Below are positions 418 through 17,167 of a DNA stretch of 64,000 bases, one piece after another (within the stretch, counting starts at the first letter, position 1; every line of letters begins with the position of its first letter). The position numbers and the translations under genes were made by a program. The notes under the pieces are model-generated. The model saw only the letters and a program-made list of their open reading frames with translations, was not told where the DNA came from and ran no database searches. The stretch is from Alphaproteobacteria bacterium. Lineage in GTDB: Bacteria > Pseudomonadota > Alphaproteobacteria > MPNO01 > UBA830. The stretch lies in the NCBI GenBank assembly GCA_965243135.1, contig OZ251539.1:2272001-2336000 (forward strand), read 5' to 3'.

Positions 418-3389
418 TTGCTGGCCTCCGCCGTCGCCGACACGTAGGCGGCGCCGCTTGCGAACCTGGAGAGCCGCTCGGTGAACTTGTCGGCCGCATC
501 GCCCTGCATCGACAAACCGTCTCCGAAGGCCAATTCGAACCCCGCTTCGAGGTTTCCGGAACTCGCATCGCGCAATTGCGGTTCGAGAAACTCTCGAACC
601 GGCTGCGCGTCCTCCACGGATCCTTGGAATTCCAGTTCGAAGGAGCCGCCGTCTCGCGTTTCGTAGCCACCTTTCAGTGTTACTTTCTTTTCCGCGCCCG
701 CTACGGTGCGCACCGCGGGCAATAGAGGAAAGGCGTCGCCCGCCTCGAACATCCGAATCGAGACCGAACCGACCGCCTCGACCTTCGCGGCGCGAGCCTG
801 CTCCCACAATTTCAGCAACGCCTCCCTCAGAAGGCCCTCGGCCGCGAACGAATGCGCTGCCGAAGAGTCGCCGCCGCTGTCTTTGCCGCTGCCGGCGGAC
901 GGCTCTGGCGGAGTCGGCGGAGAATCACCTATTGGACCGCTTGCCTCCTGGCGGGGCCAAATGCGGGCCTCGCGGGCATGCGCCATCGTGAAGATCACGG
1001 ACTGCTCGTCGATGACGATCGAAGCAGACGGATCCCCGGGCCCGTACACGAGGTCGCCCCGGCGATACACGTAATCCCCCTGTTCCACGCCTCTCCTGAC
1101 CCCGCGAACGAATATGTCGTCGCCGATCAGAACCGGCAACGCCGGGTCGCGCCGGAACTCGGCGCGCAGCGCCAACGCCGTCATCTCGCCTTTCCGGAGC
1201 GGCGTCCGGTCGCGCACGTAGGCAGGCGAATCGGGTTCGTCCTCGGACAACCGCAACTTCCCGAGATCGCGCAGCGCCCGCACGACCTGTCGCTGCCCGG
1301 CCCCTGGTTGGTCCGAAGCCGAATGCATGTCGATCGCCGAGTGTTCCAGATCGCCCTTCCCGGCGCGCGACGGATAGAACAAATGCCGGTAGCATTGCTG
1401 AATCGCGATCGCGAGCTCATGCTCTGACCGCGCTTCCATTTCCCGCACTTGCGCCTGCTGATACTCGGCCAGATCGGCGAGTCGTTCGGGTTTCTTCAAC
1501 TCCCGCAGCGCCAGACGATGCCGTGTCTTGCGCCGCATGTCGTCCTTGCGCGCCTCGTCGGCTACCGAAAACACCAGATTGTTGCGCAACGCTCTCAGGG
1601 CGGACCCTTCGGAGCCCTTGCGGGAATGGATGCGCTGGACGAGATCCGGAACGCTCTCGACGGAACCGCCGATCGTTACGCCATCGTAGGACAGCACCAC
1701 CAGATTCGGCCGCCCGTCGCCGACCTCGTCGGGAACGTCGAACGGCCCGCCGGGGAACGCCACCGTTTCGAAAGTCGGCCCTTTGAATATCTCGCGAATC
1801 CGGTCGTTGAGTTCGGCCCGGGCGTCTCCCGCATCTACATGCTCTTCTTCCCGCCGGACGATCTGGCGCAGATTGGCCTCCGCCAGAAAGCGCATCGGTA
1901 CGCCCGGCCTGTCGTCCAGATAAGCCGATTCGGCGAGGAACTTCTTCCGCGCTTCCTCGATGAAGCTGACATCCGTTGCCGGACCGAGCATCGAATAGCG
2001 CAACTGATCCGGCGACAGCCCTATGAGCCGTTCGTTGAAGGCAAGCGTGTGCATGAAGACGGTGCGGGCCGCATAGACCGTGTAGGGCGGCAAGCCGCCA
2101 TGGTGCTCCGCGTCGATCTCTTCGGCGAGCGCTTTCTTTTCTCCCGAGCCGGCGATGTCGCTGCCGATCGCCGGCGTATAGGCTCCTTGTTCGAGACGGG
2201 TGACGACCTCCTGGCGGATCGGCTCGTGACCGGGGTCGATGTGGTGAAGATGAATCGCTGTCGCGTCCGCCGGCCTTTCCTCCCACAGATGCGCGATTGT
2301 CCGGGCCAGCAGCCGCAGCATCCCCCGTACCCTTTGAAAACTTCCGAGAGTCGCTGTCTTGTCGGTCAGGGTTTTGAGCACTTCGGGATGAAAAGGGTAG
2401 CTCTTCCCGAACGTATCCGCGGTCTCGGGGAGGGAAGCGCTGTCCGGCAACGCTTCCCGGTTTGCCGCCCACAACGACCGATAGGTGCCGACGACCGAGC
2501 CGCTGTCGCCGATGGATTCGAACAGGCGGCGGCGAAGCACCTGCACCATTTCGTCGTCCTCGGTGGGATTCAACAGCGTCGCCTTGCGCGCCGAAACGCT
2601 TTTCGCCTGCTCCATCCTGTCGGCGATGATCTGGTTCTCCGCGCTGTAAGCGTCCGTCGCCACCCCGTCCTTGCCGATCGCCAGGGTGTAGACCAGAGCC
2701 GCGCCGGGCGCGCTTTCGACCGCCTTGATCAGTCCCGTCAGAAACGCCGTCAGCTGTTCGCCCTCGGCCAATTTGCTCGTCTTCCGCAAATAGACCGAAA
2801 GCTCGTCCAGCAGAATCAGGGTCGGTTCGCCGCCGAACAGCTCCCGCAACGTCTCCGCGCCGGGAGCGATCCGTTTCTCGTCGCTCTCGCGAACCCGTTC
2901 GTAACCTTGATTGCCGCCAAGCGCCCAGGCGATCTCCCCCCAAGGCGTGTACGCCTTCACGTCGTCGCTCATCTTCCGGCCGTTGGCCGGATCCGCGTTC
3001 TCGCCGTCGAAGGCCGCTATGCGGACGTTGCCCTTCGGCGCCAGCGACGGGTCGATGAACTCCTCGACGTTCGATACGCCGGCCATGCCGCCGGCGGCGT
3101 GCGCCAGCGCGATCAGTCCGTGCGTCTTGCCGCCGCCGTATGAAGTGTCGAGCCGGAAGACCGCCGCCGCCTCGCCCCCGGCGCCCGTTAATCGGCGGCA
3201 CACGTTGACAAGCACGTTGCGCAGACCTTGCGTGGGAAAGGTGTTGGCGAAGAAACGAACCGGGTCGACGTAGTCCGCGCTTCCCTTGCCGGTCAGCACC
3301 TGCGCGAGGTCGGCCGCGAAGTCCGCCTCCGCGATGCTTCCCGCCAGAACGTCCGCTCGCGGGCGGCAGGTCTCGAATATCGTCGTCAT
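414..3389 (-). CDS. DUF499 family AAA+ ATPase (restriction-like/BREX-related defence ATPase)
   Basis: N-terminus CRPRADVLAGSIAEADFAADL, FFANTFPT, Walker A LDTSYGGGKTH, Walker B LILLDEL, SYPFHPE, FQRVRGMLRLLA; probable start ATG 3389. Confidence 0.85.
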   Translation of the reverse strand: MTTIFETCRPRADVLAGSIAEADFAADLAQVLTGKGSADYVDPVRFFANTFPTQGLRNVLVNVCRRLTGAGGEAAAVFRLDTSYGGGKTHGLIALAHAAGGMAGVSNVEEFIDPSLAPKGNVRIAAFDGENADPANGRKMSDDVKAYTPWGEIAWALGGNQGYERVRESDEKRIAPGAETLRELFGGEPTLILLDELSVYLRKTSKLAEGEQLTAFLTGLIKAVESAPGAALVYTLAIGKDGVATDAYSAENQIIADRMEQAKSVSARKATLLNPTEDDEMVQVLRRRLFESIGDSGSVVGTYRSLWAANREALPDSASLPETADTFGKSYPFHPEVLKTLTDKTATLGSFQRVRGMLRLLARTIAHLWEERPADATAIHLHHIDPGHEPIRQEVVTRLEQGAYTPAIGSDIAGSGEKKALAEEIDAEHHGGLPPYTVYAARTVFMHTLAFNERLIGLSPDQLRYSMLGPATDVSFIEEARKKFLAESAYLDDRPGVPMRFLAEANLRQIVRREEEHVDAGDARAELNDRIREIFKGPTFETVAFPGGPFDVPDEVGDGRPNLVVLSYDGVTIGGSVESVPDLVQRIHSRKGSEGSALRALRNNLVFSVADEARKDDMRRKTRHRLALRELKKPERLADLAEYQQAQVREMEARSEHELAIAIQQCYRHLFYPSRAGKGDLEHSAIDMHSASDQPGAGQRQVVRALRDLGKLRLSEDEPDSPAYVRDRTPLRKGEMTALALRAEFRRDPALPVLIGDDIFVRGVRRGVEQGDYVYRRGDLVYGPGDPSASIVIDEQSVIFTMAHAREARIWPRQEASGPIGDSPPTPPEPSAGSGKDSGGDSSAAHSFAAEGLLREALLKLWEQARAAKVEAVGSVSIRMFEAGDAFPLLPAVRTVAGAEKKVTLKGGYETRDGGSFELEFQGSVEDAQPVREFLEPQLRDASSGNLEAGFELAFGDGLSMQGDAADKFTERLSRFASGAAYVSATAEASK

Positions 3390-3735
3390 GCCAACTCCGA
3401 ATTCCGGCAAGCCGTCGGTTCTGCGGCGAAACATTTACCGCATTGCCGGACATCGTGCATCATGCCCCCGAAATCGCCCCGGACGCCTTCGGGTCCCCGC
3501 CGTTATCCGCCGAACCCGCACCGAAGAAACCGCAGCCGGTCGGGCGCCTTCCTCGAACCGTCTCCGTCGCTGTCTCTCCCCTTGCCCGCGCCGCGCCCGA
3601 TCATGCTAAGCTGTCGGCGGCTGCCTCCCTGAATCCGCGTTCCGGTCCATCGCGACCTGACCGGCGCCTAGATGCCTCAGAATGCGGAGGCGGCCGCTCC
3701 AGCGCCTTGCGGGGAGTTTCGCGTTGACCGGCCTG

Positions 3736-6096
3736 ATGAACACCGGACCGTTCGGGCAACCGGTCCGGCGAATCGAGGATCGCACCCTCCTCGCCGGCGC
3801 CGGCCGCTTCGCCGACGACATCCATTTTCCGGACATGCTGCAGGCGGCCTTCGTCCGCAGCCCCTTAGCGCACGCCCGCGTCGGAAAAATCGACGCGGCG
3901 CGGGCCCGCGCCGCGCCCGGCGTGCGCGCAGTCCTCACGATGGCGGAACTCCGGCCGCGCCTGACCGATACCGTCCTTGCCGTCGGAATGCCGAGCAAGG
4001 ACTACCGGCAAACCCGGAACCGCCCGATCCTCGCCGACCGGGAGGTCTGCCACGTCGGCGAAGCGGTCGCGGCCGTCGTTGCCGAAAACCGCTACCTTGC
4101 CGAGGACGCCGCCGCGCTGGTGGAAGTCGATTACGACGCGCTGCCGGCTTCGGTCGATCCTGAAACGGCAGCGCGGCCAGGATCCCCGCTCGCGCACGCG
4201 GATGCCGAGCACAACGTTCTGGCCGAATTCTCCATGGGATACGGCGACGTGGACGGCAGTTTCCGAAAGGCGGCGCATGTCGTCCGGGAAAAGATGTCGA
4301 TCCACAAGGGACTCGGCATGGCGATCGAGGGACGGGGAGTCGTGGCCCGCTACGATTCTCTCGAAGACAGGCTGACGGTGTGGCTCGGAACCCAGATGCC
4401 CCACATGGCGCACCGCATGCTCGTCGCCCTGCTCGGCCGCAGCGAAACCGACACCCGGGTCGTGACCCCCGACATCGGCGGCGGCTTCGGCCCCAAGCTC
4501 GTGTTCTATCCAGAAGACGTCGTGGTCGCGGCGGCGGCGCTGCTGCTGAACGCTCCGGTCAAATGGATCGAAGACAGGCGCGAACACTTCACGGCGTCGA
4601 CGCAGGAACGCGACCAGATCTGGAACATGGAACTCGCGGCGGACGACCGCGGGCGCATTCTCGGCGTTCGCGGCACCATGATCCACGATCACGGCGCCTA
4701 TACCGCGCGCGGCGTCAACGTCGCGCAGAACGCCGGCAGCATCGTGCCGGGCCCCTACGAGGTTCCGAGCTACGCTCTCGACGTCAAGCTGGTGCTGACC
4801 AACAAGCCCTGCGTGACGCCGGTGCGCGGCGCCGGCTACCCGCAGGGCTGCTTCGTCATGGAACGCCTTATGGACAGGGCGGCGGCCGCGCTCGGCCTCG
4901 GCCGCGACGAGATTCGCAGGCGCAACCTGATCCGGCCGGACGACATGCCCTACACCCGCCCTCTGGCGAGCCGCGCCGATCCCGCGATCAGAATCGACGA
5001 AGCGGATTTTCCGAAGTGCCTGGAAACGGCGTTGCGCGAAGCGGGATGGGCGGAGTTTCCCGCCCGTCGGCGCGCGGCCGCGGCCGAGGGCCGCCGCATC
5101 GGCATCGGACTCGCCGCCTACCTCAAGGGTTCCGGCCGGGGGCCCTTCGAAGCGGCGTCCGTGCGGGTGGGGCCGTCCGGCCGCGTTCAGGTCGCGTCGG
5201 GAGCCGCGGCGATCGGCCAGGGCACCCGAACGATGCTGGCCCAGATCGTCGCGCAGGCGCTCGGCGTCGACATGTCGCGGATCGACGTCGCTATCGGCGA
5301 CACCTCGCTGATCCCCTACGGCATGGGAGCGGCATCGAGCCGCCAGGCGGTGACCGCGGGCTCTTCGGCGCGGGCCGCCGCGGAAAAAGTGCGCGACAAG
5401 GCGCTGCGGGTGGCCGCGCACCTCCTCGAAACCGCCGAGGACGATCTCGAAATCGCGGACGGCCGCGTCCACGTCAAAGGCGTGCCGGGGATGTCGATCG
5501 GCCTCGGCGAGATCGCCTCCAGGCTCGCCGGCGCCGCCACGGGCTTCGCGCTGCCGGGCGGGGAAAGCCCCGGCCTCGAAGCGCAGGAAGCGGTCCCGAT
5601 CGAGGGACTCGCGTTCTCGAACGGCGCCCATGCGGCCGTCGTCGAGGTGGACGAAGAGACCGGCGAAATCCGGGTGCTCGACTACGTCGTCGCCCACGAC
5701 TGCGGCGTGATGATCAATCCGCTGGCGATCGACGGCCAGATCGCCGGCGGCGCGGCGCACGGAATCGGCTTCGCCATGTTCGAGAAAATGGTCTGGGACG
5801 ACCAGGCGCAGCCGCAATCCACCAATCTCGCGGAGTACCTGGTGCCGGGCTCCGTCGAAGTGCCGAAAGTGACGATCGAGCACATCGTCGTGCCGTCTTC
5901 GCAAAATCCGCTCGGCGTCAAGGGCGTCGGCGAAAGCGGCCTCGTTCCCGTGCCGGCCGCCATCGCGTCGGCCGTGGAAGACGCGCTGTCCGAATACGGT
6001 GTGCGCGTCTCCGGAATACCGCTCGCGCCGTCCGACCTGCTTGGGTTGATTCGGAATTGCCGGTCGGGGGATAATGAGGGCCCGCGCACTACCTGA
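3736..6096 (+). CDS. Xanthine dehydrogenase/CoxL-like molybdopterin-binding large subunit
   Basis: RIEDRTLLAGAGRFADD, GGGFGPK, RGAGYPQ, DGQIAGG, NPLGVKGVGE motifs. Confidence 0.9.
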   Translation: MNTGPFGQPVRRIEDRTLLAGAGRFADDIHFPDMLQAAFVRSPLAHARVGKIDAARARAAPGVRAVLTMAELRPRLTDTVLAVGMPSKDYRQTRNRPILADREVCHVGEAVAAVVAENRYLAEDAAALVEVDYDALPASVDPETAARPGSPLAHADAEHNVLAEFSMGYGDVDGSFRKAAHVVREKMSIHKGLGMAIEGRGVVARYDSLEDRLTVWLGTQMPHMAHRMLVALLGRSETDTRVVTPDIGGGFGPKLVFYPEDVVVAAAALLLNAPVKWIEDRREHFTASTQERDQIWNMELAADDRGRILGVRGTMIHDHGAYTARGVNVAQNAGSIVPGPYEVPSYALDVKLVLTNKPCVTPVRGAGYPQGCFVMERLMDRAAAALGLGRDEIRRRNLIRPDDMPYTRPLASRADPAIRIDEADFPKCLETALREAGWAEFPARRRAAAAEGRRIGIGLAAYLKGSGRGPFEAASVRVGPSGRVQVASGAAAIGQGTRTMLAQIVAQALGVDMSRIDVAIGDTSLIPYGMGAASSRQAVTAGSSARAAAEKVRDKALRVAAHLLETAEDDLEIADGRVHVKGVPGMSIGLGEIASRLAGAATGFALPGGESPGLEAQEAVPIEGLAFSNGAHAAVVEVDEETGEIRVLDYVVAHDCGVMINPLAIDGQIAGGAAHGIGFAMFEKMVWDDQAQPQSTNLAEYLVPGSVEVPKVTIEHIVVPSSQNPLGVKGVGESGLVPVPAAIASAVEDALSEYGVRVSGIPLAPSDLLGLIRNCRSGDNEGPRTT

Positions 6097-6098
6097 CG

Positions 6099-7067
6099 GT
6101 GATGGACATGGCCAAGGACTACGCACCTGCCGGCGTGATTCCGGCAACCCTCGCCGCCTTCGATTCGGATTTCGCTTTCGACTGGAAGGAGACGCGCCGC
6201 CATCTCGCCTTCGTCGCGAGCGTGGATGGCGTCGACGCCGTCGCCGTAAACGGACACGCCTCGGAAGTGCACGCCTGCACGTTCGACGAGCAGGCCCGCA
6301 TGATGGACGAAGCCGCGGACGAAATCGGCGACCGGCTGCCGCTGATCTGCGGAGTCTACGCGGACGGCAGTCTGGAAGCGGCGCGCATCGCGAGGATGGC
6401 CGAAGCGCACGGCGCGTCGGCGTTGCTGTGTTTCCCGCCCCACTCGCTCGGCATGGGCGGCATTCGCCATCGCCCCGAAATGGGGGTCGCACACATGAAG
6501 GCGATCGCGGACGCCACCGACCTCCCGCTGATCGTGTTCCAGTACGCGAACGAACTCGCCTACCCGCTGGATGCGTTGGTGCGCATCTGCGAAGAAGTGC
6601 CGAGCGTCAAGGCGATCAAGGACTGGTCGCCGCCTCAGGTTCATGATCGCCACATCAAGACGCTGCACGGCCTGACCCGGCGCGTGAGCGTCCTGTCGAC
6701 GAACTCGGCCTGGCTGATGTCCTCGCTCGTCATGGGCGCGGACGGTTTGCTGTCGGGGGCGGGCTCGGTTATCGCCGACCTGCAGGTCGCATTGTTCCGG
6801 GCGGTGCGGGCGAAGGATCTCGCGGCCGCGCAGCGCACGGCGGACCGCATCTACCACACGACGCAAGTCTTCTATTGCGATCCGTTCGGCGACATGCACA
6901 ACCGCATGAAGGAAGCGCTGGTCGCGATGGGACGCCTCGACGGGCCGGCCGTCGTGCGGCCGCCGCTGATGAAACTCGACGTTTACGAAAGGGCGCGAAT
7001 CGCCAAGGCCATGACGGATGCCGGAATTACGCGGCACGGAGCCGCGCCGGCCCTGGCCGCCGAATAG
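6099..7067 (+). CDS. Dihydrodipicolinate synthase (DapA-like) family class I aldolase
   Basis: GVIPATL, NGHASE, PLIVFQY, AIKDW Schiff-base Lys, VRPPL. Confidence 0.85.
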   Translation: MMDMAKDYAPAGVIPATLAAFDSDFAFDWKETRRHLAFVASVDGVDAVAVNGHASEVHACTFDEQARMMDEAADEIGDRLPLICGVYADGSLEAARIARMAEAHGASALLCFPPHSLGMGGIRHRPEMGVAHMKAIADATDLPLIVFQYANELAYPLDALVRICEEVPSVKAIKDWSPPQVHDRHIKTLHGLTRRVSVLSTNSAWLMSSLVMGADGLLSGAGSVIADLQVALFRAVRAKDLAAAQRTADRIYHTTQVFYCDPFGDMHNRMKEALVAMGRLDGPAVVRPPLMKLDVYERARIAKAMTDAGITRHGAAPALAAE

Positions 7068-7371
7068 GGCGGCGCGGGAACGCGCACGCAAAGGAGCGCT
7101 TCGCGGACGTTCGCCGTTCCCGGCGTTTCCCGGACGCACGGGCAGAAGGCCTGGACCGGCCGAACGGCGCGGTTCCAGCAAAGCTTGTCCACACCGCGCC
7201 GCCGCTCGACCGTCGTTGCGGTTCACGCTGCGTTCGTCTTCCTTACGTCCGGGAAAGGAGCCGAACGGGCCGCCTGCCCTGCCCGCTCGTTCTCCTCCGG
7301 CCGACGGTTCCGCGCCTCGCAAGACGGACGCCAAATTGCATGCGGGACGCGCACGGACCGCTCGCCGCCCG

Positions 7372-8244
7372 TCATTCCTCGCGGCCGCCCAGAAACGCCT
7401 CCATCCAGTTGCGGTAACGCGCGTCCTTCGTGAGGCGTTTCAACGCCTCGGGCGAAACCGTTCCCTCGACCTCCGAAGGAGGGCTTCCGCCGCGCAACGC
7501 GCCGAGCGCATCGCGCGTCGCCTGCATCGCCGCCATGAAAGGCAGGTGTCCCTGCAAGCTGATCCTGACGCCGTTGGCCGCAAGATACTCGAGATCGCCC
7601 AAAACGCCTTCGCCCGAACCGCCGAGAAATACGGGAACGTCGATTTCGGTTCGCAACGCTTCGATCTCTTCCGCCGCCCGTACGCCGGTGAAGAAGACCG
7701 CATCGACCCCCGCCGCCCGATACGCCTTTCCTCGCGCCACCGCGTCGCCCAGTCCTCCCACGGCGGCGTTGGTGCGGCCGGCGATCACGAGTGACGGATC
7801 CCGGCGGCCCGACAACGCCGCCCGCATCTTTCCCACGCTCTCTTCGACGGACAGAAGCCGGGCGCCGCCCACCGTCCCGTACGGCTGCGGCAGATCGGTA
7901 TCTTCGATCGTAAGGGCGGCGACGCCCGCGTTTTCCAGTTCTTCCACGGTGCGCATCACGTTGAGCGCGTTGCCGTAACCGTGGTCGGCGTCGACGAGCA
8001 AGGGCATTTCGACGGCGCGGTTGATGCGGAGGGTCTGGTCCGCGAATTCCGTCAACGTAAGCAGGATCAAGTCCGGCGTGCCGAGCACCGCCATCGACGC
8101 CACGGAGCCCGCGAACATGCCGGTTTCGAAGCCCAGCTCTTCGGCGATTCGCGCCGAAAGCGGATCCCATACCGATCCCGGGTGAACGCAGCGCTCCTCC
8201 TCCAGGATCGCCCGAAAGGCCTCGCGGCGGCCTGCCCAGCGCAT
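7372..8244 (-). CDS. Isocitrate lyase/PEP mutase family protein (oxaloacetate decarboxylase-like)
   Basis: SVWDPLSARIAEELGFE, VDADHGYGNALNV, IEDT motifs. Confidence 0.88.
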   Translation of the reverse strand: MRWAGRREAFRAILEEERCVHPGSVWDPLSARIAEELGFETGMFAGSVASMAVLGTPDLILLTLTEFADQTLRINRAVEMPLLVDADHGYGNALNVMRTVEELENAGVAALTIEDTDLPQPYGTVGGARLLSVEESVGKMRAALSGRRDPSLVIAGRTNAAVGGLGDAVARGKAYRAAGVDAVFFTGVRAAEEIEALRTEIDVPVFLGGSGEGVLGDLEYLAANGVRISLQGHLPFMAAMQATRDALGALRGGSPPSEVEGTVSPEALKRLTKDARYRNWMEAFLGGREE

Positions 8245-8849
8245 ACGAACCTCCTTTGCGGCAAGCGGACGGCAACTTCAGACAAGCGAAACATACCCCA
8301 GACGCGTCTTCGACGCCTTGCTCCCCGGCATTTCGTTAAACCGGCAAGTTAACGAACGCTTGGAGAATCGCGCCGCCGCAGCCCGCAAGCGTCGCGCGGC
8401 CTCCCCGACGCTCGGCGAGTCGGACGGCTTGACGTCCGCGCGCCGGAAAACCTGGCAACCGCACTCTGCGTTCGGTTGCGGACGATCCCGGTTTCGGTCA
8501 GCGCATTGCAGCAAATCGGCGCTCGCTCCGAGACTCTTGCGCCGTACGTCCTGAAATCATGTTTCAGGAGCGCGGAATTTTCTTGCTCGGGTGCGGAAAA
8601 CTGCGAATCCTCCACGCCGAGAACGCCGTTTTCGCAGTCTAAAGCCGCTCCGCGACCGCATGTCCGCGCGCGGCCCGGTTTGCCCCGAATTCGCCGCGTG
8701 GCACGGGAGCGACAGTCCGTTTTCGTTCCTCAGTCGCCCGCCTGCGCGACCCTTGCGGGTCTGTCGGCGGGATCGACGATTCGCGGGGCGTCGAACGGGC
8801 GGCAGCCGACAAAAAATGGCTCAACGAGAACGCCTCCAACCCCTCCTCC

Positions 8850-8878
8850 TTGACGGCTCCGGCGCGGCAGCCTACTCT
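8850..8878 (+). promoter_or_regulatory. Sigma70-like promoter, probably leaderless transcript of the AAA/PD-(D/E)XK gene
   Basis: TTGACG-17 nt-TACTCT, then 6 nt to ATG 8885 with no Shine-Dalgarno; same arrangement at 49527-49555. Confidence 0.65.
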
Positions 8879-8884
8879 CTTCGG

Positions 8885-10429
8885 ATGACGAGACGCATGC
8901 TGCCGACCGGCATGACCTCCCTCCGGAAAATCCGGGGGATGGATTGCTACTACGTCGACAAGACGGATCATGTGCGCCGTCTCGTCGAGGGAGGTCAATA
9001 TTATTTTCTGTCGCGCCCGCGCCGGTTCGGCAAGACCCTGCTGGTGGACACGCTGCAGAAGTTATTCGAGGGCTGCGAGGAGTTGTTCCGGGGCCTCGCC
9101 GTGCACGGCAAATGGGACTGGTCGGCGCAGCATCCGGTCGTGCGGATCAGCTTCGGCGGCGGCAATTTCGACTCCCCGGACCTCATTCGGGGCAACGTGG
9201 AAGACCAGTTGGAGGAAACGGAGCGGCTGGCCGGCCTCGAACCGGGATCTGCCGAGGCGGCAGTCCGTTTCCGGCGCCTGATAAGGACGCTGCACGAGCG
9301 CACCGGACAGCGGGCGGTCGTTCTGGTGGACGAATACGACAAGCCGATCCTGGACGCGCTCGGCGACCGGGAACTCGCGCGGGCCAACCGCGATTTCCTG
9401 CGCGGCTTCTACGCGATGATCAAGGAGTGCGACGAGCATCTCCGTTTCGTTTTCCTGACGGGAGTGAGCAAGTTCTCGCGAGCGGGCATTTTCTCGGGTC
9501 TGAACAACCTGATCGACATCACGCTGGAGCCGGAGTTCTCGGACATTTGCGGCTACACGGACGCGGAACTGGACACGGTCTTCGCCCCGGAACTCGAGGG
9601 TCTGGACCGGGACGAGATCCGCCGCTGGTACAACGGCTACAACTGGCGCGGGCCGGAGAAGGTCTACAATCCGTTCGACGTTCTCCTCCTCTTCAGAATG
9701 CGCGAGGTCGGGCCGTACTGGTTCGAGACCGGGACGCCGACTTTCCTTGTCGACCTTCTGTCGCGGCGCCGGGTCGCGACGCCGGCCCTGGAGGGCATGT
9801 TCGCGGACGACGCGCTGCTGTCGGCGATCGACGTCGACCGCATCCCCGTCGAGGCGCTGCTGTTCCAAACCGGCTACCTGACCATCGTCGGCGAAAAGCA
9901 GGATGAGGACGCCCGCCTCTACCAACTGGACTACCCGAACCAGGAGGTGAAGCGCAGCGTGAACGCGCTCCTGCTGGAAGCGATGGCGCCGGACGTCACG
10001 GTCGCGGCGGAGAGCCGGGAGTTGCGCCGCCTGATGCGGGCGAACGACTTCGCGGGCCTCGAGCGACGGTTCCGGGCGTTCCTGGCGAGCATCCCGAACG
10101 AGTGGTACGCGAACACCGGCATGGCGGGCTACGAGGCGCACTACGCGAGCGTGTTCTACTCGCACTTCGTGGCGGCGGGGATGGACGTCCGCGCGGAGGA
10201 GAGCACGGCGCGCGGCCGCTCGGACCTCGTGGTCCTGTACGATGGCGGCGTCTACCTGTTCGAGTTCAAGGTCGCGGACGGGAAGCCGGAAGGCCGGGCG
10301 CTGGCGCAGATACGGGAACGCGGCTACGCGGACAAGTACCGGCGTCCGGGCCAACCTGTCCACTTGATCGGCATCGAGTTCGGCCGGGAGGAGCGCAACA
10401 TCGTCGGGTTCGAGTTCGAGACCGTCTGA
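8885..10429 (+). CDS. AAA-ATPase-like protein with C-terminal PD-(D/E)XK nuclease (PDDEXK_9-type)
   Basis: YYVDKT, SRPRRFGKT (Walker A), VLVDEYDKP, TGVSKFS, WYNGY, YNPF, GRSDL...FEFK...ALAQIRERGY. Confidence 0.9.
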   Translation: MTRRMLPTGMTSLRKIRGMDCYYVDKTDHVRRLVEGGQYYFLSRPRRFGKTLLVDTLQKLFEGCEELFRGLAVHGKWDWSAQHPVVRISFGGGNFDSPDLIRGNVEDQLEETERLAGLEPGSAEAAVRFRRLIRTLHERTGQRAVVLVDEYDKPILDALGDRELARANRDFLRGFYAMIKECDEHLRFVFLTGVSKFSRAGIFSGLNNLIDITLEPEFSDICGYTDAELDTVFAPELEGLDRDEIRRWYNGYNWRGPEKVYNPFDVLLLFRMREVGPYWFETGTPTFLVDLLSRRRVATPALEGMFADDALLSAIDVDRIPVEALLFQTGYLTIVGEKQDEDARLYQLDYPNQEVKRSVNALLLEAMAPDVTVAAESRELRRLMRANDFAGLERRFRAFLASIPNEWYANTGMAGYEAHYASVFYSHFVAAGMDVRAEESTARGRSDLVVLYDGGVYLFEFKVADGKPEGRALAQIRERGYADKYRRPGQPVHLIGIEFGREERNIVGFEFETV

Positions 10430-10572: not shown

Positions 10573-10649
10573 GCCGGCTTAGCTCAGCTTGGCAGAGCAT
10601 CTGATTTGTAATCAGAGGGTCGGGGGTTCGAATCCCTCAGCCGGCACCA
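10573..10649 (+). tRNA. trnT: tRNA-Thr (anticodon TGT)
   Basis: GCCGGCT acceptor stem, D arm AGCTCAGCTTGGCAGAGC, anticodon arm TCTGA-TTTGTAA-TCAGA, T loop GGTTCGAATCC, encoded CCA. Confidence 0.96.
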
Positions 10650-11162
10650 GATTTGTCGGGAGTTCGCAGGGTTTCGCAATGTCGCCGACTGCTCGTACGG
10701 CGATCGGGTTCTGCCGTTCGACGCTCCCGCTGTGCGCCTGGCAGGAGAAGACGGAGCGCGCGCCGCCGGACATGCGCCGGGATTCGCCGCCGCAGCAAGT
10801 CGCGCTCTGACAGTTCCAACGCGCAATTTCGCGCCTCTCGGCGCAAAAGCAATCAACCCTTTCGACCTCCCGCCCGATCGATCGCGTTCTCTCCGCCAAG
10901 GATTTCGCACTTTGCGGAATTTTCGAAATGCTTCCCCATCAACTGCGAAGCGTAAGCAGGCATGAAACTTTTCCCTCGCGACAAACACCGGATCGACTTT
11001 CTCGCTTTGGCGAGCAGGAAAGAAAGCAATCCCTGGATTTCCCGCTTCTACTTTTTCGTCGGAATCGTCTTCTTCGCATATGTCTTCTACGAACTGATCG
11101 CCGCCCGATTGTAGCGGCAACGCCAACGTCCCTCCGCAGCATCTCACGGAGCGCGCCTGCCC

Positions 11163-12269
11163 ATGTCGGAAAACAGCCGTCGAATCCTGAAACGCGACCG
11201 CAACCCGCATCTGTTTCGTCCGCTCGTCATGCGATCGGTCAAGCTGCGCAATCGCATCATGATGTCGCCGATGTGCCAGTACTCCGCTGCCGACGGCATG
11301 CCGGACGACTGGCATCGCGTTCACCTCGGCAGCCGCGCGGTCGGAGGCGCAGGCATCGTCTTTACCGAAGCGACGCACGTGTCGCCGGAAGCCCGGATCA
11401 CGCCTCATTGCCTCGGCATCTGGAACGACCGGCAACGCGACGCTCTCGCGTCGATAGCCGCCTTTATCTCCGCCCGGGGAGCGGTCCCCGCCCTCCAGAT
11501 CGCGCATGCCGGACGCAAGGCTTCCACTGCCCGTCCCTGGGAAGGCTCGCGACCGTTGCCTCGCCCGGACGCCTGGCAGACCGTCGGACCGTCCGCCCTG
11601 CCCTACGGCGATTTTCCGGCTCCGCGCGAGCTGAGCGCGGCGGAAATCGCCGAGACGTACGAACAGTTCGCCGCCGCCGCCAAGCGCGGCCGTCAAGCCG
11701 GTTTCCGCCTCGTAGAGCTCCACGCCGCGCACGGCTATCTCATCCACAGTTTCCTGTCGCCGTTGAGCAACCGGCGGAAGGATCGATACGGCGGCGCGCT
11801 CGAGAACCGCGCCCGTTTCCTGCTCGAAACCATAGAAGCCGTGCGAAGCGAATGGCCGGAGGATCTACCGATGTTCGTCAGACTCTCCTGCTCGGATTGG
11901 GTCGAGGGCGGACTCGAACTAGCGGACATAGTCATGGTCGCGAAATGGATCGCCGCAAGCGGCGACGTCGACCTGATCGACTGCTCGTCCGGCGGCAACG
12001 ATCCGCGGCAACGCATTCCCATCCATCCGGGCTACCAAGTGCCTTTCGCCGAGACCGTCCGGCGCGAGGCAAGAATCGCTACCGCGGCGGTCGGGCTGCT
12101 GCACAGCCCGGATTTCTGCGAAGAGGTCGTCGCGAACGGACGCGCCGACATCGTGGCCCTCGGCCGCGCGTTTCTCGCCGATCCGCATTGGCCGCTCCAG
12201 GCCGCCCGGAAACTCGGCGCAGAAGACGTTTCATGGCCGGTTCAGTACGAACGCGCGAACATATTTTAA
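11163..12269 (+). CDS. NADH:flavin oxidoreductase / old yellow enzyme (YqjM/NamA-like)
   Basis: NRIMMSPMCQYSA, QIAHAGRKAS, ELHAAHGYL, NRRKDRYGG, GRAFLADPHWP. Confidence 0.92.
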   Translation: MSENSRRILKRDRNPHLFRPLVMRSVKLRNRIMMSPMCQYSAADGMPDDWHRVHLGSRAVGGAGIVFTEATHVSPEARITPHCLGIWNDRQRDALASIAAFISARGAVPALQIAHAGRKASTARPWEGSRPLPRPDAWQTVGPSALPYGDFPAPRELSAAEIAETYEQFAAAAKRGRQAGFRLVELHAAHGYLIHSFLSPLSNRRKDRYGGALENRARFLLETIEAVRSEWPEDLPMFVRLSCSDWVEGGLELADIVMVAKWIAASGDVDLIDCSSGGNDPRQRIPIHPGYQVPFAETVRREARIATAAVGLLHSPDFCEEVVANGRADIVALGRAFLADPHWPLQAARKLGAEDVSWPVQYERANIF

Positions 12270-12363
12270 CGACGGAAGGGTTGGCATGGCCTGCGCGCCT
12301 GACGTTGAACTTCTATCGGAGTTGCTTGCAGCCGCGGGCGGGTTTTGGAGGCCCGCGGATCGA

Positions 12364-12400
12364 CAATGGTTGAAGCCTGTCCGTCACGCTTCAACCATTG
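12364..12400. terminator. Perfect 13-bp inverted repeat between convergent genes (possible bidirectional terminator)
   Basis: CAATGGTTGAAGC-11 nt-GCTTCAACCATTG; no strong U tract. Confidence 0.45.
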
Positions 12401-12435
12401 CGCGTTGAATCGAGCGTCAGGAGCGGATTTCGGCT

Positions 12436-12650
12436 TCAGACGGTCTCGAACTCGAACCTGACGATGTTGCGCTCTTCCCGGCCGAACTCGATCAGGTGGA
12501 CCCGAACGCCCGGACGCCGGTACTTGTCCGCGTAGCCGCGCTTCCGAATCTGCGCCAGAGCCCAGCCTTCCAGCTTCCCATCCGCGACCTTGAACTCGAA
12601 CGGGCAGACGTTGCCGTTGTACAGAACCGCCAGGCGGCCGTCGCCTCGGT
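12436..12650 (-). pseudogene. 3' remnant of the AAA/PD-(D/E)XK nuclease gene family
   Basis: VLYNGNVCPFEFKVADGKLEGWALAQIRKRGYADKYRRPG...EFGREERNIVRFEFETV*, near-identical to the C-terminus of 8885-10429. Confidence 0.88.
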
Positions 12651-13041
12651 GCCCCGCTCCGCCCGCCCCTGCAACCGAGCGGTCCTTGGCTCCCAAACGT
12701 CTCGCCGATGTCCATCTCCGCAAATATGCAGCGGATTGAGCCTACAGCCTCCGCCCTGATCGCGGCACCCGGCACCGACTATCGGTGGGCGGCCCGATCA
12801 TGTCTTCGGACGGACAAATAACGATCCAGGGGTGACGCCACGCTCGCCATGACCCTGCACGCCGATGCTGCCTTCGCAAACAGCGTGTCCGCGTCCAGCT
12901 TCGCGCAGGTGGTCAATCCCGCGCCGTCCGTAGTATGATGCCGAGCATGCTGGCCCCGGCACCCGGAGACCTCGTGCCGCGAACCCGCCCGACCTGACAG
13001 AGACCGCCTGGCGCAGCGCAACCCACGCAGAACGATGGATC

Positions 13042-13320
13042 GTGATCAGGAGCTTCAAGGATCGAAACACCCGAGCCTTTTTCGAAGGCCAACGGATTCC
13101 AGCTTTTCAGAGTTTTGCTGACCAAGCAGCGCGGCGTCTCACCTATCTTGACAACGCCGAGTCCCTTCAGGATCTTATGAATTTGCCAAGCAATCGGTTC
13201 AAGGCACTCGGAGGAAACCGTAAAGGTCAATACAGTATTAGAATAAATCGACAGTGGCGGATATGCGTCCGCTGGGAAAACGAGGAACCCTGCGATGTCG
13301 AAATCGTGGATTACCACTGA
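13042..13320 (+). CDS. higB: HigB (RelE/ParE superfamily) toxin
   Basis: MIRSFKD...PSNRFKALGGNRKGQYSIRINRQWRICVRW...VEIVDYH. Confidence 0.93.
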   Translation: MIRSFKDRNTRAFFEGQRIPAFQSFADQAARRLTYLDNAESLQDLMNLPSNRFKALGGNRKGQYSIRINRQWRICVRWENEEPCDVEIVDYH

Positions 13321-13332
13321 AGTATTGAAGCC

Positions 13333-14376
13333 ATGAACGTAAAAAGCGGCATGAGACCAGTGCATCCGGGCGAGATATTGAGCGACGAGCTTGCCGCGCT
13401 CGGATTGTCCGATAATGAATTGTCAGGCCGCTTGGATATTCCTGAACAACAAATCAAGGAGCTACTGAACAAACAACGCAACATGACAGCAGACATCGCG
13501 TTACGGTTGGCGCGATATTTTGGAACGACGCCGCAGGTCTGGCTAAATCTGCAAAAAACCTACGAGCTTCGCCAAGCCGAGATCGAATCGGGCCGCCTAA
13601 TCACGAAGCGCGTAAGGCCATGGCAAACTATAGGGACTAGCGGAGGCATAATTGAGCGGGAAGTGGATTGGAAAACTACGTTGAAAACTGGCGATTCCGC
13701 TAAATTCATGAAACGGCTTGACGAGGAATACAGAAACACAACCGGCATTTCCGACCGGCGTTTCTATAGCATATTTTATTCGCAAGTTAATCCGTCTCCC
13801 ATTATGATGCTAGGATATAATCCCGGCGGAGATCCGGAAATCTGGGAGGAATCTCAACTTGCTTCAACATCATTCTATGAACATGAAGAACACGAGTATG
13901 TCGACTGCCACTACCGCACAGCACGCGTTATGAGCGAATTTCTCAAAAAAGTCCTTGATATTGAAAAAGAATGCATCCGAAAAATACCTAAAACCAATTT
14001 GATATTTAGGAGATCCCCTTCTGCCAATAAATTGAAGCTAAAGGAATCCGACGCAATAGATGAAGCCAAACCTACATTGGATCAGATATTGAGGCGCGTC
14101 GAACCGGACGTGATAATCTGTGAAGGACTTCCCACTCTGCGAAATCTTGAAAAATACTATTGCACCAGTCATTGCGAGAAGATCGACGGTGAATCTGTCA
14201 ACGTTCCTAACGGGGATCATATTGCTCGAATTTATAGAGCGGATCGAGCATTTTTATCGTCGACGGGCAAGTTTGTGAAACTGCTAGGCATAGGCCATCC
14301 ATCAAGATTTGGCGGCCGATCGGAATGGAATGAAGTAATCAAATTTTCCAGAAATTTTTTAGCCGAATATAGATGA
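13333..14376 (+). CDS. higA: HigA antitoxin (HTH) fused to a C-terminal uracil-DNA-glycosylase-superfamily-like domain
   Basis: aa 1-~97 HigA (PVHPGEIL, TADIALRLARYFGTTPQVWLNLQ); remaining ~250 aa carry IMMLGYNPGG, TNLIFRRS, EPDVIICEG, GIGHPSR in UDG-fold order. Confidence 0.75.
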   Translation: MNVKSGMRPVHPGEILSDELAALGLSDNELSGRLDIPEQQIKELLNKQRNMTADIALRLARYFGTTPQVWLNLQKTYELRQAEIESGRLITKRVRPWQTIGTSGGIIEREVDWKTTLKTGDSAKFMKRLDEEYRNTTGISDRRFYSIFYSQVNPSPIMMLGYNPGGDPEIWEESQLASTSFYEHEEHEYVDCHYRTARVMSEFLKKVLDIEKECIRKIPKTNLIFRRSPSANKLKLKESDAIDEAKPTLDQILRRVEPDVIICEGLPTLRNLEKYYCTSHCEKIDGESVNVPNGDHIARIYRADRAFLSSTGKFVKLLGIGHPSRFGGRSEWNEVIKFSRNFLAEYR

Positions 14377-14458
14377 ATAATTAGATATTCGCCAAGATCG
14401 CGGACACCGATACTTGGCGGAACGACCATCGAGAATGCGCATAAAGTCGAAATTACCG

Positions 14459-14707
14459 CTAACGCACGGCGTGCGAGAACCACCCAAAGTCAACGACGAA
14501 GTTCGATACCTGCTGCACAGAAAACAACCCGTCTTGGTACAAGGCGCGACCTGCCGTTTCCGCATCTCGAAGAGTGTCGTAGAAATCGACGCATTCCCCA
14601 TTTTTCATCAGGGCCCACCGATTGGCTTCGCGAAGCGTCAGTTCGGGGAGCAGATGTCGGAATGCCTCGTAGTTGGCGTCGACTTCGTTCTGAAGAACCT
14701 CGATCAT
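14459..14707 (-). CDS. Small DUF5678-like protein (usually partner of a retropepsin-like aspartyl protease)
   Basis: EVDANYEAF..LLPEL....RWALMKNGE..DFYDT..DA..AG...Y.DG.FSVQQV; GAGGG RBS. Confidence 0.6.
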   Translation of the reverse strand: MIEVLQNEVDANYEAFRHLLPELTLREANRWALMKNGECVDFYDTLRDAETAGRALYQDGLFSVQQVSNFVVDFGWFSHAVR

Positions 14708-14984
14708 GACGTCATCCCTCTATCGCCTGGAGATCCTCGCCCGTATCCACTTGCCCGCTTGATGGAGCGCAAGGTTAGCGGATACGCGCACTCACCCCAT
14801 TACATGTCTGCCATTAGTCTACTATGGGTCGGTGCAACCGTTGTCAATATCGGAATATATGGTTTGATCTTCAGAAACGCGAAAACCTGCCGACCGATTC
14901 GGACGTTCCGGCGAAGCCGCGGCTCGTTTTTCGCCTTCCGCCCGCCGAAACGGCTGCGACCCGGCGCTTCGCGGCAGCGGCCCT

Positions 14985-16184
14985 TCAGCCCCGGCGGCGC
15001 AGCGCAAGGAGGAAATACATCGACATGACCGGCCCTGCGGCCATCGCGAACAAGGCGGCTGTCCAGGCTTCCGCGACCCCGACGCCGCCGGCCGCGTCGA
15101 GCGCTATCCCGACCGCGAAAGGACCGAGAATTCCGCCGGAGAAACCGATGAAAGCCTGCACGGCGAGCGTCGCGCCCCGCCGACCGGGATCGGACAACGC
15201 GATCGTGCCGGCCGTGGTCGCCGAATTTCGCCCGTAGGAAACCATCCCGAACAGGATGCAGAGCGCGAGCGGAATCTCGTAACGCATGTCCGCGGTGAGG
15301 CCGATGGCCGCGGCCAGCGCGCACGAGGCTGCGGCGACGCAGATCAGGAGCCGCCGCCGGTCGATCCGAACCGAAAGTTCGCCGAACAGCATCGCGGCGG
15401 GCGGGCCCACGAGCGCGACCGCGGTCGCCCACGCGGCGGCGCTCAAGACAATGTCGCCGCCGGGCGCGCGGTCCGCGAGAAAAACGAAGAAGGTCACCAG
15501 CCAGACGCGGCTCGCGAACACTTCCCAGGCGATACCGAGAAAGGAGCCCGTGTATCCCATGACGGCCCGGTTGCGGAACACCGGTCGGAAATCCAGCACC
15601 GCGGAAGATGGTTTGGTCCGGGGCGGCGTCGGCGGCAGTACGGCGGCCGCGATCGCCAGGGCGCCTATCGAGCCGATGCCGGCGACGGCGAACGCCCAAC
15701 GCCAATCGAGCCATTCGGCGGCCGCGCCGCCGATGAGGATCGAAAGGCCCGAACCGATTCCGAACACGGAAGTGTAGTAGGCCGCCCCTCGTTGCTGCGT
15801 TCGCCCCGCGGGGAGAAGATCGGTCAACGCCTTGAGTCCGGGCGTGTAGGTTCCGGCTAGGCCGATTCCCGTCACGACGCGGAAAGCGGCGCCCGACCAC
15901 AATCCGTCGGCAAGAAGCCCGAAACCGAAATTCCCCGCGGCGCCCAACGCCGCGCAGGCGAGATAGATGCGCCTCGGATCGACCCTGTCGGTATAGGCGG
16001 TCAGCACGGGCACGGTCGCGATGAAGCCCAGGAACAGAGCGCCGCCGAGCCACCCCGCCTCCGTGTTCGTCAGCCTCCAGTCGCGAATGATGTCGCCCAG
16101 AACCGCCGCAGGCGCCATGAAACCGAGCAGCGAAAGCACGAGGGCGGCGCAAAGCGCGGCGACCAGAACGACCGGAGAGGTCAA
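14985..16184 (-). CDS. MFS transporter
   Basis: Many hydrophobic helices, YTDRVDPRR motif-A-like loop; TTG start overlaps upstream stop. Confidence 0.85.
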   Translation of the reverse strand: MTSPVVLVAALCAALVLSLLGFMAPAAVLGDIIRDWRLTNTEAGWLGGALFLGFIATVPVLTAYTDRVDPRRIYLACAALGAAGNFGFGLLADGLWSGAAFRVVTGIGLAGTYTPGLKALTDLLPAGRTQQRGAAYYTSVFGIGSGLSILIGGAAAEWLDWRWAFAVAGIGSIGALAIAAAVLPPTPPRTKPSSAVLDFRPVFRNRAVMGYTGSFLGIAWEVFASRVWLVTFFVFLADRAPGGDIVLSAAAWATAVALVGPPAAMLFGELSVRIDRRRLLICVAAASCALAAAIGLTADMRYEIPLALCILFGMVSYGRNSATTAGTIALSDPGRRGATLAVQAFIGFSGGILGPFAVGIALDAAGGVGVAEAWTAALFAMAAGPVMSMYFLLALRRRG

Positions 16185-17167
16185 GCGACGGATACCACGA
16201 TTTTGCCGCAGGCCCGGTTCGATTCCATGTAAGCGTGCGCCTCGCGTACGTCGTCGAACTGGAAGACGCGATCCAGGGGATTGCGGTAACGTCCTTCCTC
16301 GATCCCCGTCAGGTATTCCGCGAACGCCTCCGTCGTCATCGGCGTCGAAGAACTGGAGAAATAGGTGAACTTGGTCGTCGACGGAATCGCCGCGCCGGGA
16401 GAAAATTCCTTCAACGTCCATTCGCCGCCGAGGATGCCCGCCATGCACAGGGTCCCGCCTCTTCTGACGCAGGCGAAGGAATCGTCGAGCGCTGCGGTGC
16501 CGACCAGATCGAACATCTTGTCGACGCCTCCGGGCGCCAGCTCCCGCACGGAAGGCGCGACCGGACCATTCGCAATAACGACGCGGTCCGCTCCGAACTC
16601 CCGCATGCGCCTTTCCTTGGCGACGTCGCGGGTCGTTGAAAGCACGGTCAGTCCCTTTGCCCGCGCGTAGTCCGCCGCGACCAGCCCAACGGCCGAGGAG
16701 CCTCCGCGAATGAGCAACGTTTCGCCCGCAGCGACGTCGAGCGCGAGTTCCAGCGCGCCCCACGCCGTGTGGAAGATCTCGGGCAAGGCCGCAAGCTCCG
16801 TCCAGCGAAGCCGGGTGTCGACGGGATGTACGTGGGCAGCCGGCACCGACACGTACTCGGCGTAACTTCCGTCGTAGGCCCGCCCCATCCCGCCGGTGGT
16901 GGCGACCACGGACTCTCCCGGCTCGAAGGACGTGTCCGGCGCGTCGACCACGATGCCGGCGCATTCGATGCCGAGCACGCGGGGAAAGCGAACGGTCGGG
17001 GAATGCCCCAGTCGCGTGAATACCTCGCCGCGGTTCAGTCCGAAAGCCATGACCCGGACGAGCGCATGTCCGGGCCGGACTTCAGGCCGGGGCCAGGCGT
17101 CGCGCAATTCGAGCGCTTCCGGTCCGCCGGCCCGTTCGACGACGATCGCGCGCATCGTGTTCGGCAT
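16181..17167 (-). CDS. MDR family NADPH:quinone oxidoreductase / zinc-binding alcohol dehydrogenase-like
   Basis: MRAIVV, AFGLNRGE, LGIECAG, GSYAEY, IRGGSSAVG, HAYMESNRACGKIVV. Confidence 0.9.
   Translation of the reverse strand: MPNTMRAIVVERAGGPEALELRDAWPRPEVRPGHALVRVMAFGLNRGEVFTRLGHSPTVRFPRVLGIECAGIVVDAPDTSFEPGESVVATTGGMGRAYDGSYAEYVSVPAAHVHPVDTRLRWTELAALPEIFHTAWGALELALDVAAGETLLIRGGSSAVGLVAADYARAKGLTVLSTTRDVAKERRMREFGADRVVIANGPVAPSVRELAPGGVDKMFDLVGTAALDDSFACVRRGGTLCMAGILGGEWTLKEFSPGAAIPSTTKFTYFSSSSTPMTTEAFAEYLTGIEEGRYRNPLDRVFQFDDVREAHAYMESNRACGKIVVSVA

Follow-up and report, generated by a model that had tools for sequence, protein, structure and literature searches.

Why should the antitoxin of a bacterial toxin-antitoxin (TA) pair continue, without a stop, into a domain built like a DNA glycosylase? 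The question is raised by a locus within a 64,000-nucleotide stretch of an alphaproteobacterial genome (the window, whose numbering is used throughout), where a higB toxin gene is followed, after a 12-nt gap, by the antitoxin gene directly downstream. This second open reading frame (ORF) encodes a HigA antitoxin, a linker and a domain resembling the uracil-DNA glycosylase (UDG) superfamily (Table 1). A first-pass annotation made from the sequence alone had proposed a canonical higB followed by a 347-residue ORF with the motifs LGYNPGG, TNLIFRRS, EPDVIICEG and GHPSR; both ORFs are listed at the positions of Table 1, and all four motifs are present in the translation. We find that the antitoxin-glycosylase architecture is real and that it is unreported in the literature searched: full-text searches returned no description of an antitoxin-glycosylase fusion, and the word 'glycosylase' has 0 occurrences in PMC11980606. 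The module as a whole is best explained as a horizontally acquired two-gene higBA TA unit. Its conserved link between antitoxin and glycosylase offers a tractable two-gene system for asking whether base chemistry is read by a TA switch or is co-regulated with it.

Reality and rarity of the fusion

Residues 100-347, searched by word index against 5.8 billion proteins, returned 47 relatives, three of which (P0001-P0003) are 347-residue proteins of the same architecture, 78-81% identical to the query and free of insertions or deletions; the window's own protein is likewise on record with 347 residues. The four fused proteins align with 0 gaps. Their mean identity is 0.87 in the HigA part, 0.66 over residues 100-125 and 0.81 in the UDG part, a pattern to be expected where a looser linker connects two domains under constraint.

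Independent sequencing data tell the same story at the nucleotide level. Sequencing runs of four studies contain all or part of the stretch, and no RNA run is listed among them. Run X4, which belongs to the study of the probable source run X1, shows 0 differences over 13070-13660. Run X5, taken from a different study and carrying another organism's label, likewise shows 0 differences over 13319-13738 (whole HigA part, linker and the start of the UDG part). Run X6, from a third study and labelled as a sponge metagenome, carries a diverged variant in which one contig spans 13616-13773 with four substitutions; the substitutions in this run are confined to the ORFs, and the contigs of the runs show a single listed indel, 7 nt inserted behind 13003 on the upstream side of higB. 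Near 13630, where the first-pass annotation had suspected a stop, the frame is open, and the contigs of other runs contain neither a stop nor an indel. Its second concern, that the fusion might be unique to this assembly, is answered by three further protein clusters and by the independent runs. Sequencing or assembly read-through is thus ruled out by the gap-free fused relatives and the junction-spanning contigs of other studies' runs.

JGI is the source of none of the fused clusters, and its metagenomes, scanned with exact peptides from the window's protein, gave no confirmed match. Four relatives with N-terminal extensions (P0061, P0067, P0072 and P0145) were read by sequence; neither in these nor in 20 other long relatives does any HTH (helix-turn-helix) family match at E <= 0.01. 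Because most homologs are separate genes (54/54 loci in the genome scan described below), the fusion is, judged by this distribution, a rare derived state.

Table 1. Coordinates of the fused module, its motifs and the neighbouring features in the window
Feature	Position	Strand	Description
higB	13042-13320	+	92-aa ORF, GTG start
HigA-UDG fusion ORF	13333-14376	+	347 aa, ATG start
HigA antitoxin part	13333-13629	+	aa 1-99, Xre-type HTH
Linker	13630-13683	+	aa 100-117, predicted disordered
UDG-superfamily glycosylase-like domain	13684-14376	+	aa 118-347 plus stop codon
Motif A, G161-Y-N163-P-G-G166	13813-13830	+	catalytic-loop position
H187-E-Y-V-D191 motif	13891-13905	+	family-specific, between motif A and Asn motif
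P219-K-T-N222-L-I-F-R-R-S228	13987-14016	+	base-reading Asn motif
Motif B, G321-H322-P-S324	14293-14304	+	
Promoter-like site TGGTCA-18-TATGAT	12910-12939	+	~100 nt upstream of higB; weak consensus match only
OYE-type flavin oxidoreductase gene	11163-12269		left flank
MFS-type transporter gene	14985-16964	-	right flank
Convergent 82-aa ORF	14459-14707	-	conserved unnamed small-protein family

Predicted fold of the C-terminal domain

Profile libraries say little about the C-terminal domain. In Pfam the only family below E 0.05 is an HTH family, and no UDG family (PF03167) appears at E <= 1; in NCBIfam, Arch_udg matches the fusion protein only at E 0.11. The clade to which the domain belongs escapes Pfam, NCBIfam and PADLOC. 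When the Pfam UDG family was run on the 24 longer relatives, 7 of them matched at E <= 0.01, only P0110 scoring above the cut-off (27.2 vs 24.3).

An AlphaFold2 model was built from an alignment of 104 relatives (A2), which also underlies the residue counts given below. Its pLDDT is 94-99 for residues 118-347 and below 50 for residues 90-110 and 112-114 (linker). Only UDG-superfamily entries are among the PDB matches listed by Foldseek, with 4ZBY at the top (E 2.9e-6, TM 0.66 by target length). Structural alignment ranks the family 4 enzymes first: the VIA-align score is 14.8 for 4ZBY (rmsd 3.5 over 175 residues) and 14.4 for both 1VK2 and 1UI1, followed by about 13 for UdgX entries, 12.8 for 2D3Y, which we take to be a family 5 UDG, 11.6 for TDG and 11.5 for SMUG1. 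A search of PDB sequences with the A2 profile gave 30 chains at E <= 10, of which 29 belong to the UDG superfamily. In the predicted model, the C-terminal ~230 residues therefore have an alpha/beta UDG-superfamily fold over the whole domain, and the fold assigned at first pass is returned both by Foldseek and by structural alignment of the model.

Motifs and position within the superfamily

The domain has both motif A and motif B of the superfamily, as GYNPGG and GHPS, together with a base-reading Asn motif and a motif of its own, HEYVD. All of these are strongly conserved among the 104 relatives: motif A at N163 (99), P164 (102), G165 (98) and G166 (103); HEYVD at H187 (95) and D191 (84), the whole motif being invariant in a 20-sequence alignment, A1; the Asn motif at N222 (103), F225 (97) and R227 (103); and motif B at H322 (102), P323 (94) and S324 (97). 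P258 is kept in 102/104. Conservation of this degree makes the four motifs noted at first pass more than a chance resemblance, and they fall where that annotation had put them. The A2 profile aligns N222 with N82 of S. tokodaii UDG and, in a stretch that is itself sub-significant, places GiNPGG opposite IGQQPGD, which is motif A in the E52Q mutant of UdgX. Since N163, H187, N222 and H322 are kept in 95-103 of the 104 relatives and in all four fused proteins, the complete glycosylase domain is probably active. The diverged variant in run X6 points in the same direction. Its 37 classified ORF substitutions comprise 14 synonymous and 23 non-synonymous changes (one further difference is unclassified), and all seven that fall in conserved-motif codons (two in L160 and one each in N163, G165, H187, E188 and D191) are synonymous, so that an active domain again appears likely.

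Where does the domain belong within the superfamily? Motifs A and B are given as GQDPY and HPSPLS for family 1, GINPG and MPSSAR for family 2, and GMNPG and HPSPRN for family 3; families 4 and 5 are described as carrying a 4Fe-4S cluster, and UdgX as having GEQPG as motif A and a His in place of one of the four Fe-S Cys residues (PMC4787834). Membership of family 4 is ruled out by the missing Fe-S cysteines. Unlike the family 4 enzymes (4ZBY, T. maritima 1VK2/1L9G, T. thermophilus 1UI0/1UI1), which have a 4Fe-4S cluster, the 104 relatives have no set of four conserved Cys columns; only four columns reach at least 15% Cys, the best with 68/104. Family 4 has Glu in its own motif A, as has UdgX, its closest kin, whereas the clade described here has Asn; the KRRIH loop of UdgX is absent from the sequence as well. 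Sequence similarity to family 4 is marginal (best E 0.0031 in the A2 profile search), and the backbone is nevertheless closest to family 4. SMUG1 (family 3) and MUG/TDG (family 2) rank structurally below family 4 and UdgX, and no significant sequence match to SMUG1, MUG or TDG was obtained (TDG, E about 2). MUG/TDG also differ in motif B, MPSSAR as against GHPS, and HEYVD is specific to the present clade. By its motifs, the clade pairs an Asn of the family 2/3 kind in motif A with a motif B of the His kind, without an Fe-S cluster, and we treat it as an unnamed UDG-superfamily clade outside families 1-5.

The residue that reads the Watson-Crick face of the base is described as usually Asn (N82 in 4ZBY), while Brig1, which targets a cytosine derivative, has Glu (PMC11078745). 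Because the base-reading Asn, N222, is retained here, we infer by analogy that the substrate would be a uracil- or thymine-type base.

The toxin and antitoxin parts

HigB matches Pfam PF05015 (HigB-like_toxin) at E 3.3e-15, with 56.8 bits against a cut-off of 27 and over profile positions 2-91 of 91, and PHROG 3066, 'toxin of TA system', at 1e-27. The closest solved chain is 6f8s_B (E 3.9e-20), named 'Putative Killer protein' in the PDB and presumably the GraT toxin of P. putida; the higB product is accordingly predicted to be a RelE-fold ribosome-dependent mRNase toxin of the GraT-like subgroup. Four related genomes carry canonical higBA pairs whose HigB is 68-74% identical to it. The C-terminal residues D90-Y91-H92 are invariant in 5/5 sequences and align with the DYH of 4mct_B and 6f8s_B. 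In P. vulgaris HigB, H54, D90, Y91 and H92 are described as critical (PMC5027501); the place of the catalytic H54 is taken by K54 here and by Glu in GraT. By its sequence, HigB is intact.

The same can be said of the HigA part. It matches the NCBIfam equivalog TIGR02607 at E 6.4e-25 (86.8 bits, cut-off 47.7) over residues 7-83, contains a Pfam HTH_3 match at residues 21-69, and has 3trb_A as its closest solved chain (E 6.5e-26, residues 5-98). Over residues 1-99/103 it is 61-66% identical to canonical HigA in the four related genomes. The module thus resembles canonical HigB-HigA and GraT-GraA modules in having the toxin gene first, a 92-residue HigB with a DYH end and an equivalog-level HigA HTH. 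It differs in what follows. That HigA normally has about 100 residues, as assumed at first pass, is confirmed by the canonical relatives and by the solved matches, 12/12 of which have 94-138 residues. Since two canonical HigA relatives read to their stops end opposite residues 101 and 110 of the fusion protein, and solved ones are of the length just given, ~245 residues lie beyond the usual HigA end.

Extension of HigA is not confined to this case. Longer proteins that share this HigA part were found as well (among them P0247-P0272, P0238 and P0231), and a Pfam scan of 16 of them revealed HigB-HigA fusions, HigA joined to HEPN_Swt1 and HigA joined to AAA_14/DUF4143. There are also recurrent proteins with an N-terminal HigA, of ~280 and ~420 residues, whose C-terminal parts are unannotated. 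Kinship of the UDG domain with the C-terminal parts of P0271 (~280 residues) and P0251 (~420 residues) was rejected, the hhalign probability being below 1%. Extended HigA antitoxins may represent a broader unexplored class.

Free-standing relatives and their surroundings

Elsewhere the UDG-like clade consists of a free-standing gene of ~230 residues with no fixed partner. Among 1.84 billion representatives, searched all-against-all with HMMER, 247 relatives reach E <= 1e-3 (50%-identity representatives), and among the best 150 of these the only known HigA-fused protein is P0002. A scan of 185,579 species genomes with A1 gave 54 loci, none of which matches before query residue 87, and tblastn detected HigB or HigA near none of the 54.

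We examined 18 of the 54 loci (tblastn E <= 3e-8), having dropped L024 and L025 as truncated contigs and L029 because it repeats, in another strain, the locus of L028. In 8/18, GC content lies at least 0.05 below that of the flanks (for example 0.47 vs 0.69 in L028). A mobile-element or defence-type Pfam family occurs within 3.5 kb in 9/18: HNH nucleases in L014 and L016, a serine recombinase with Dcm, Vsr and AIPR in L017, a FitA-like antitoxin in L021, integrases in L026 and L030, CHAT-TPR in L027, HsdM in L032 and a DarT1-associated NADAR antitoxin in L033. In L013, L022 and L028 the UDG-like gene stands alone between housekeeping genes. The integrase of L030 (a Chitinolyticbacter albus contig, 3842-8451) is an integron integrase (TIGR02249, 479 bits, cut-off 265), and its gene is adjoined, in divergent orientation, by a UDG-like homolog of subfamily B. 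After the integrase gene, a run of small ORFs follows on the other strand, with the UDG-like homolog coming first. This is the position expected of a first integron cassette. A further homolog, on a plasmid, adjoins Tn3 transposase and resolvase genes.

When the ORFs of the 18 loci and five ORFs of the plasmid locus were compared all-against-all by BLAST, no neighbour gene common to the loci emerged, which suggests that the domain works as a single-gene unit. Judging by these surroundings, the free-standing relatives behave as mobile single-gene units. In BFVD, only generic phage UDG and UDG-PolA folds were found.

The neighbourhoods of two distant loci, L026 and L033, have in common a double-AAA ATPase (7203-9359 and 2776-4854, respectively, both on the minus strand), 33% identical over 464 residues. 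Other similarities between neighbours were limited to a 41-residue match of two integrases and a match of two aldehyde dehydrogenases.

Possible functions of the fusion

What might an antitoxin gain from a glycosylase, or a glycosylase from an antitoxin? The account that we find most plausible, and hold tentatively, is that HigA has been fused through a flexible linker of ~20 residues to a probably active, Brig-like glycosylase effector, the two activities remaining largely independent. As in ordinary higBA, the HigA part would neutralise HigB and repress the operon. The UDG part would act as a monofunctional enzyme that removes uracil, or a 5-substituted uracil or hypermodified thymine, from invading phage or plasmid DNA, leaving abasic sites in it. 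Neutralisation and excision would proceed largely independently of each other; what the fusion would mainly give the glycosylase is TA-controlled expression, dimerisation and tethering to DNA through HigA, and the addiction module would provide for its retention.

The comparison with known defence enzymes is instructive. Brig1 is described as an anti-phage glycosylase of the UDG superfamily that excises modified bases from phage DNA, with 4ZBY as its best structural match and with homologs reported near TA cassettes (PMC11078745). Brig2 (bioRxiv 10.1101/2025.10.29.685425) and Brig3 (bioRxiv 10.64898/2026.02.25.707755) are likewise described as defence glycosylases of this superfamily, the former source presenting Brig2-type UDG-like proteins as integron cassettes. 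By these described traits, the present clade is like Brig1, Brig2 and Brig3 in single genes, AT-rich surroundings, integron or mobile contexts and TA cassettes nearby. Brig1 and the domain studied here share 4ZBY as their top structural match, and the free-standing relative next to an integron integrase gene recalls the described Brig2-type cassettes. The clade is thus a candidate for a new anti-phage glycosylase family, probably aimed at uracil-type modified bases. To our knowledge, Brig1-3 and the Dag proteins, all of them recent discoveries, have so far been described as free-standing enzymes.

A number of observations weigh against a fused defence effector. PADLOC (2023) gave no match for the three window proteins on which it was run. 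We know of no activity, substrate or phage phenotype for any member of the clade, and the retained Asn is no proof of a uracil-type substrate. In the AlphaFold2 model the HTH part has a pLDDT of 35-76, a low confidence that makes the model no guide to contacts between the domains. The fused form is rare: it comprises the window's own protein and three clusters, and was found at 0/54 loci in GTDB species genomes. Such rarity could mean that the fusion is a tolerated accident of a TA pair that lay beside a glycosylase gene. The mobilome link is patchy as well, given that neither form of the query found a relative on IMG/VR contigs, that 0/50,697 phage GenBank records and 1/72,556 plasmid records contain one, and that the other 9/18 loci lack any Pfam family of mobile-element or defence type within 3.5 kb.

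TA systems are increasingly seen as phage sensors, with triggers that are mostly proteins. One might envisage sensor-coupled abortive infection, a coupling to HigB release already raised at first pass. The domain would sense the phage, and engagement of a target base (an abasic product may remain bound by enzymes of the UDG type) or binding by a phage UDG inhibitor would titrate or distort the antitoxin, free HigB and stop translation. We consider this unlikely. Nothing points to contact of the UDG domain with HigB or with the HTH, and the linker is predicted to be disordered. Moreover, free-standing homologs function without a TA partner, as the lack of HigB and HigA near the 54 loci indicates, and all family-invariant catalytic-type residues are retained although a pure sensor would not need them. 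Distinctly unlikely, too, is the specific proposal that the domain is the phage-sensing input of a TA abortive-infection switch, with modified or uracil bases, or a UDG inhibitor, sequestering or deforming HigA-UDG and so releasing the HigB mRNase. Were sensing nevertheless its role, a TA system would read DNA base chemistry directly, and the fusion would perhaps exemplify a larger class of HigA antitoxins whose C-terminal domains serve as sensors or effectors.

The alternative that the domain serves repair or self-maintenance, as an additional glycosylase acting on uracil or damaged bases on behalf of the host or of the mobile element carrying it, treats the fusion as neutral, the intergenic region having been lost. 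It would account for a fold and motifs like those of repair UDGs, for the retention of the base-reading Asn typical of uracil recognition, for the rarity of the fused form and for a linker less conserved than both domains. However, the host already has four canonical UDG-superfamily genes (PF03167, above the cut-off), and the UDG-like family was found in 0/77 other genomes of the same order at E <= 1e-5 (with the host's own genome, 78 were searched, of which 43 pass the quality filter; for incomplete ones the result reads as 'not found'). The AT-rich composition relative to the surroundings in 8/18 loci and the occurrence beside an integron integrase gene and Tn3 transposition genes are equally unlike a housekeeping repair gene. 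We regard a repair role as quite improbable; the UDG-like domain is, by this distribution, accessory and not housekeeping.

Finally, a UDG-fold domain that no longer cuts, and whose extra binding of DNA or bases alters operator binding or antitoxin stability, would fit the failure of Pfam UDG to reach its threshold on this protein and has a precedent in UdgX, described as binding uracil-DNA tightly with no detectable excision (PMC4787834), but it is very improbable, given that the motif A Asn, the TN-Asn and the motif B His are nearly invariant in the 104 members, fused ones included, and that the free-standing members have no HTH partner to modulate.

Composition and insertion site

The host genome is a single contig of 6.1 Mb. 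The genes flanking the module have GC contents of 0.654 and 0.674, while higB has 0.498, the HigA part 0.519 and the C-terminal UDG part 0.426 (0.411 at third codon positions, GC3), so that the lower GC of the C-terminal part noticed at first pass stands. From this drop relative to the flanks, the higBA-UDG module is, by composition, foreign to its host. The further step within the fusion ORF suggests that the HigA and UDG halves are of different origin.

The OYE and MFS genes are adjacent in related genomes too, making the flanks syntenic. The spacer between them is 2.76 kb here vs roughly 0.4-1.1 kb in nine relatives in which both genes were matched on one contig, and positions 12270-15025 have nothing in common with the OYE-MFS spacer of five compared relatives. 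No flanking direct repeats or att-like sites bounding the islet were found. Upstream of higB, the hexamers of the promoter-like site match the consensus at 9/12 positions, and the region has five such sites vs 2.1 expected from shuffles; a search for a HigA operator palindrome there found no convincing one.

The host has a second, free-standing UDG-like paralog of 238 residues with 32% identity (G000:C1:3681214-3681870, minus strand, corresponding to L002 1447-2163, minus strand). It too lies in a stretch of low GC (33-43%, with flanks of 60-77%). The ORFs flanking it resemble, by reading only, transposase or integrase fragments.

The 82-residue ORF that converges on the module belongs to a family of 39 protein clusters with 62-91% identity and has no Pfam match better than E 0.11; a search of the OYE-MFS spacers in five relatives did not find it. 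The longest contig of one homolog, P0347 (56 residues), measures 2757 bp, equal to that of the fused protein P0003. The equal length suggests that P0347 and P0003 may lie on one contig and that the 82-residue gene may travel with the module.

Two further features lie to the left of the module. An element of ~210 bp at 12432-12635 has at least eight further copies in the genome with 89-91% identity, and is matched at ~70% in one congener; it overlaps a 95-residue ORF (12436-12723, minus strand) with a partial PD-(D/E)XK_9 match (E 7e-4), and could be either a dispersed fragment of a gene or a repeat of the MITE type. A tRNA-Thr(TGT) gene at 10573-10649 is followed, just upstream of the OYE gene, by a patch of lower GC (0.48-0.55) at 10800-11100, which could be a remnant integration site.

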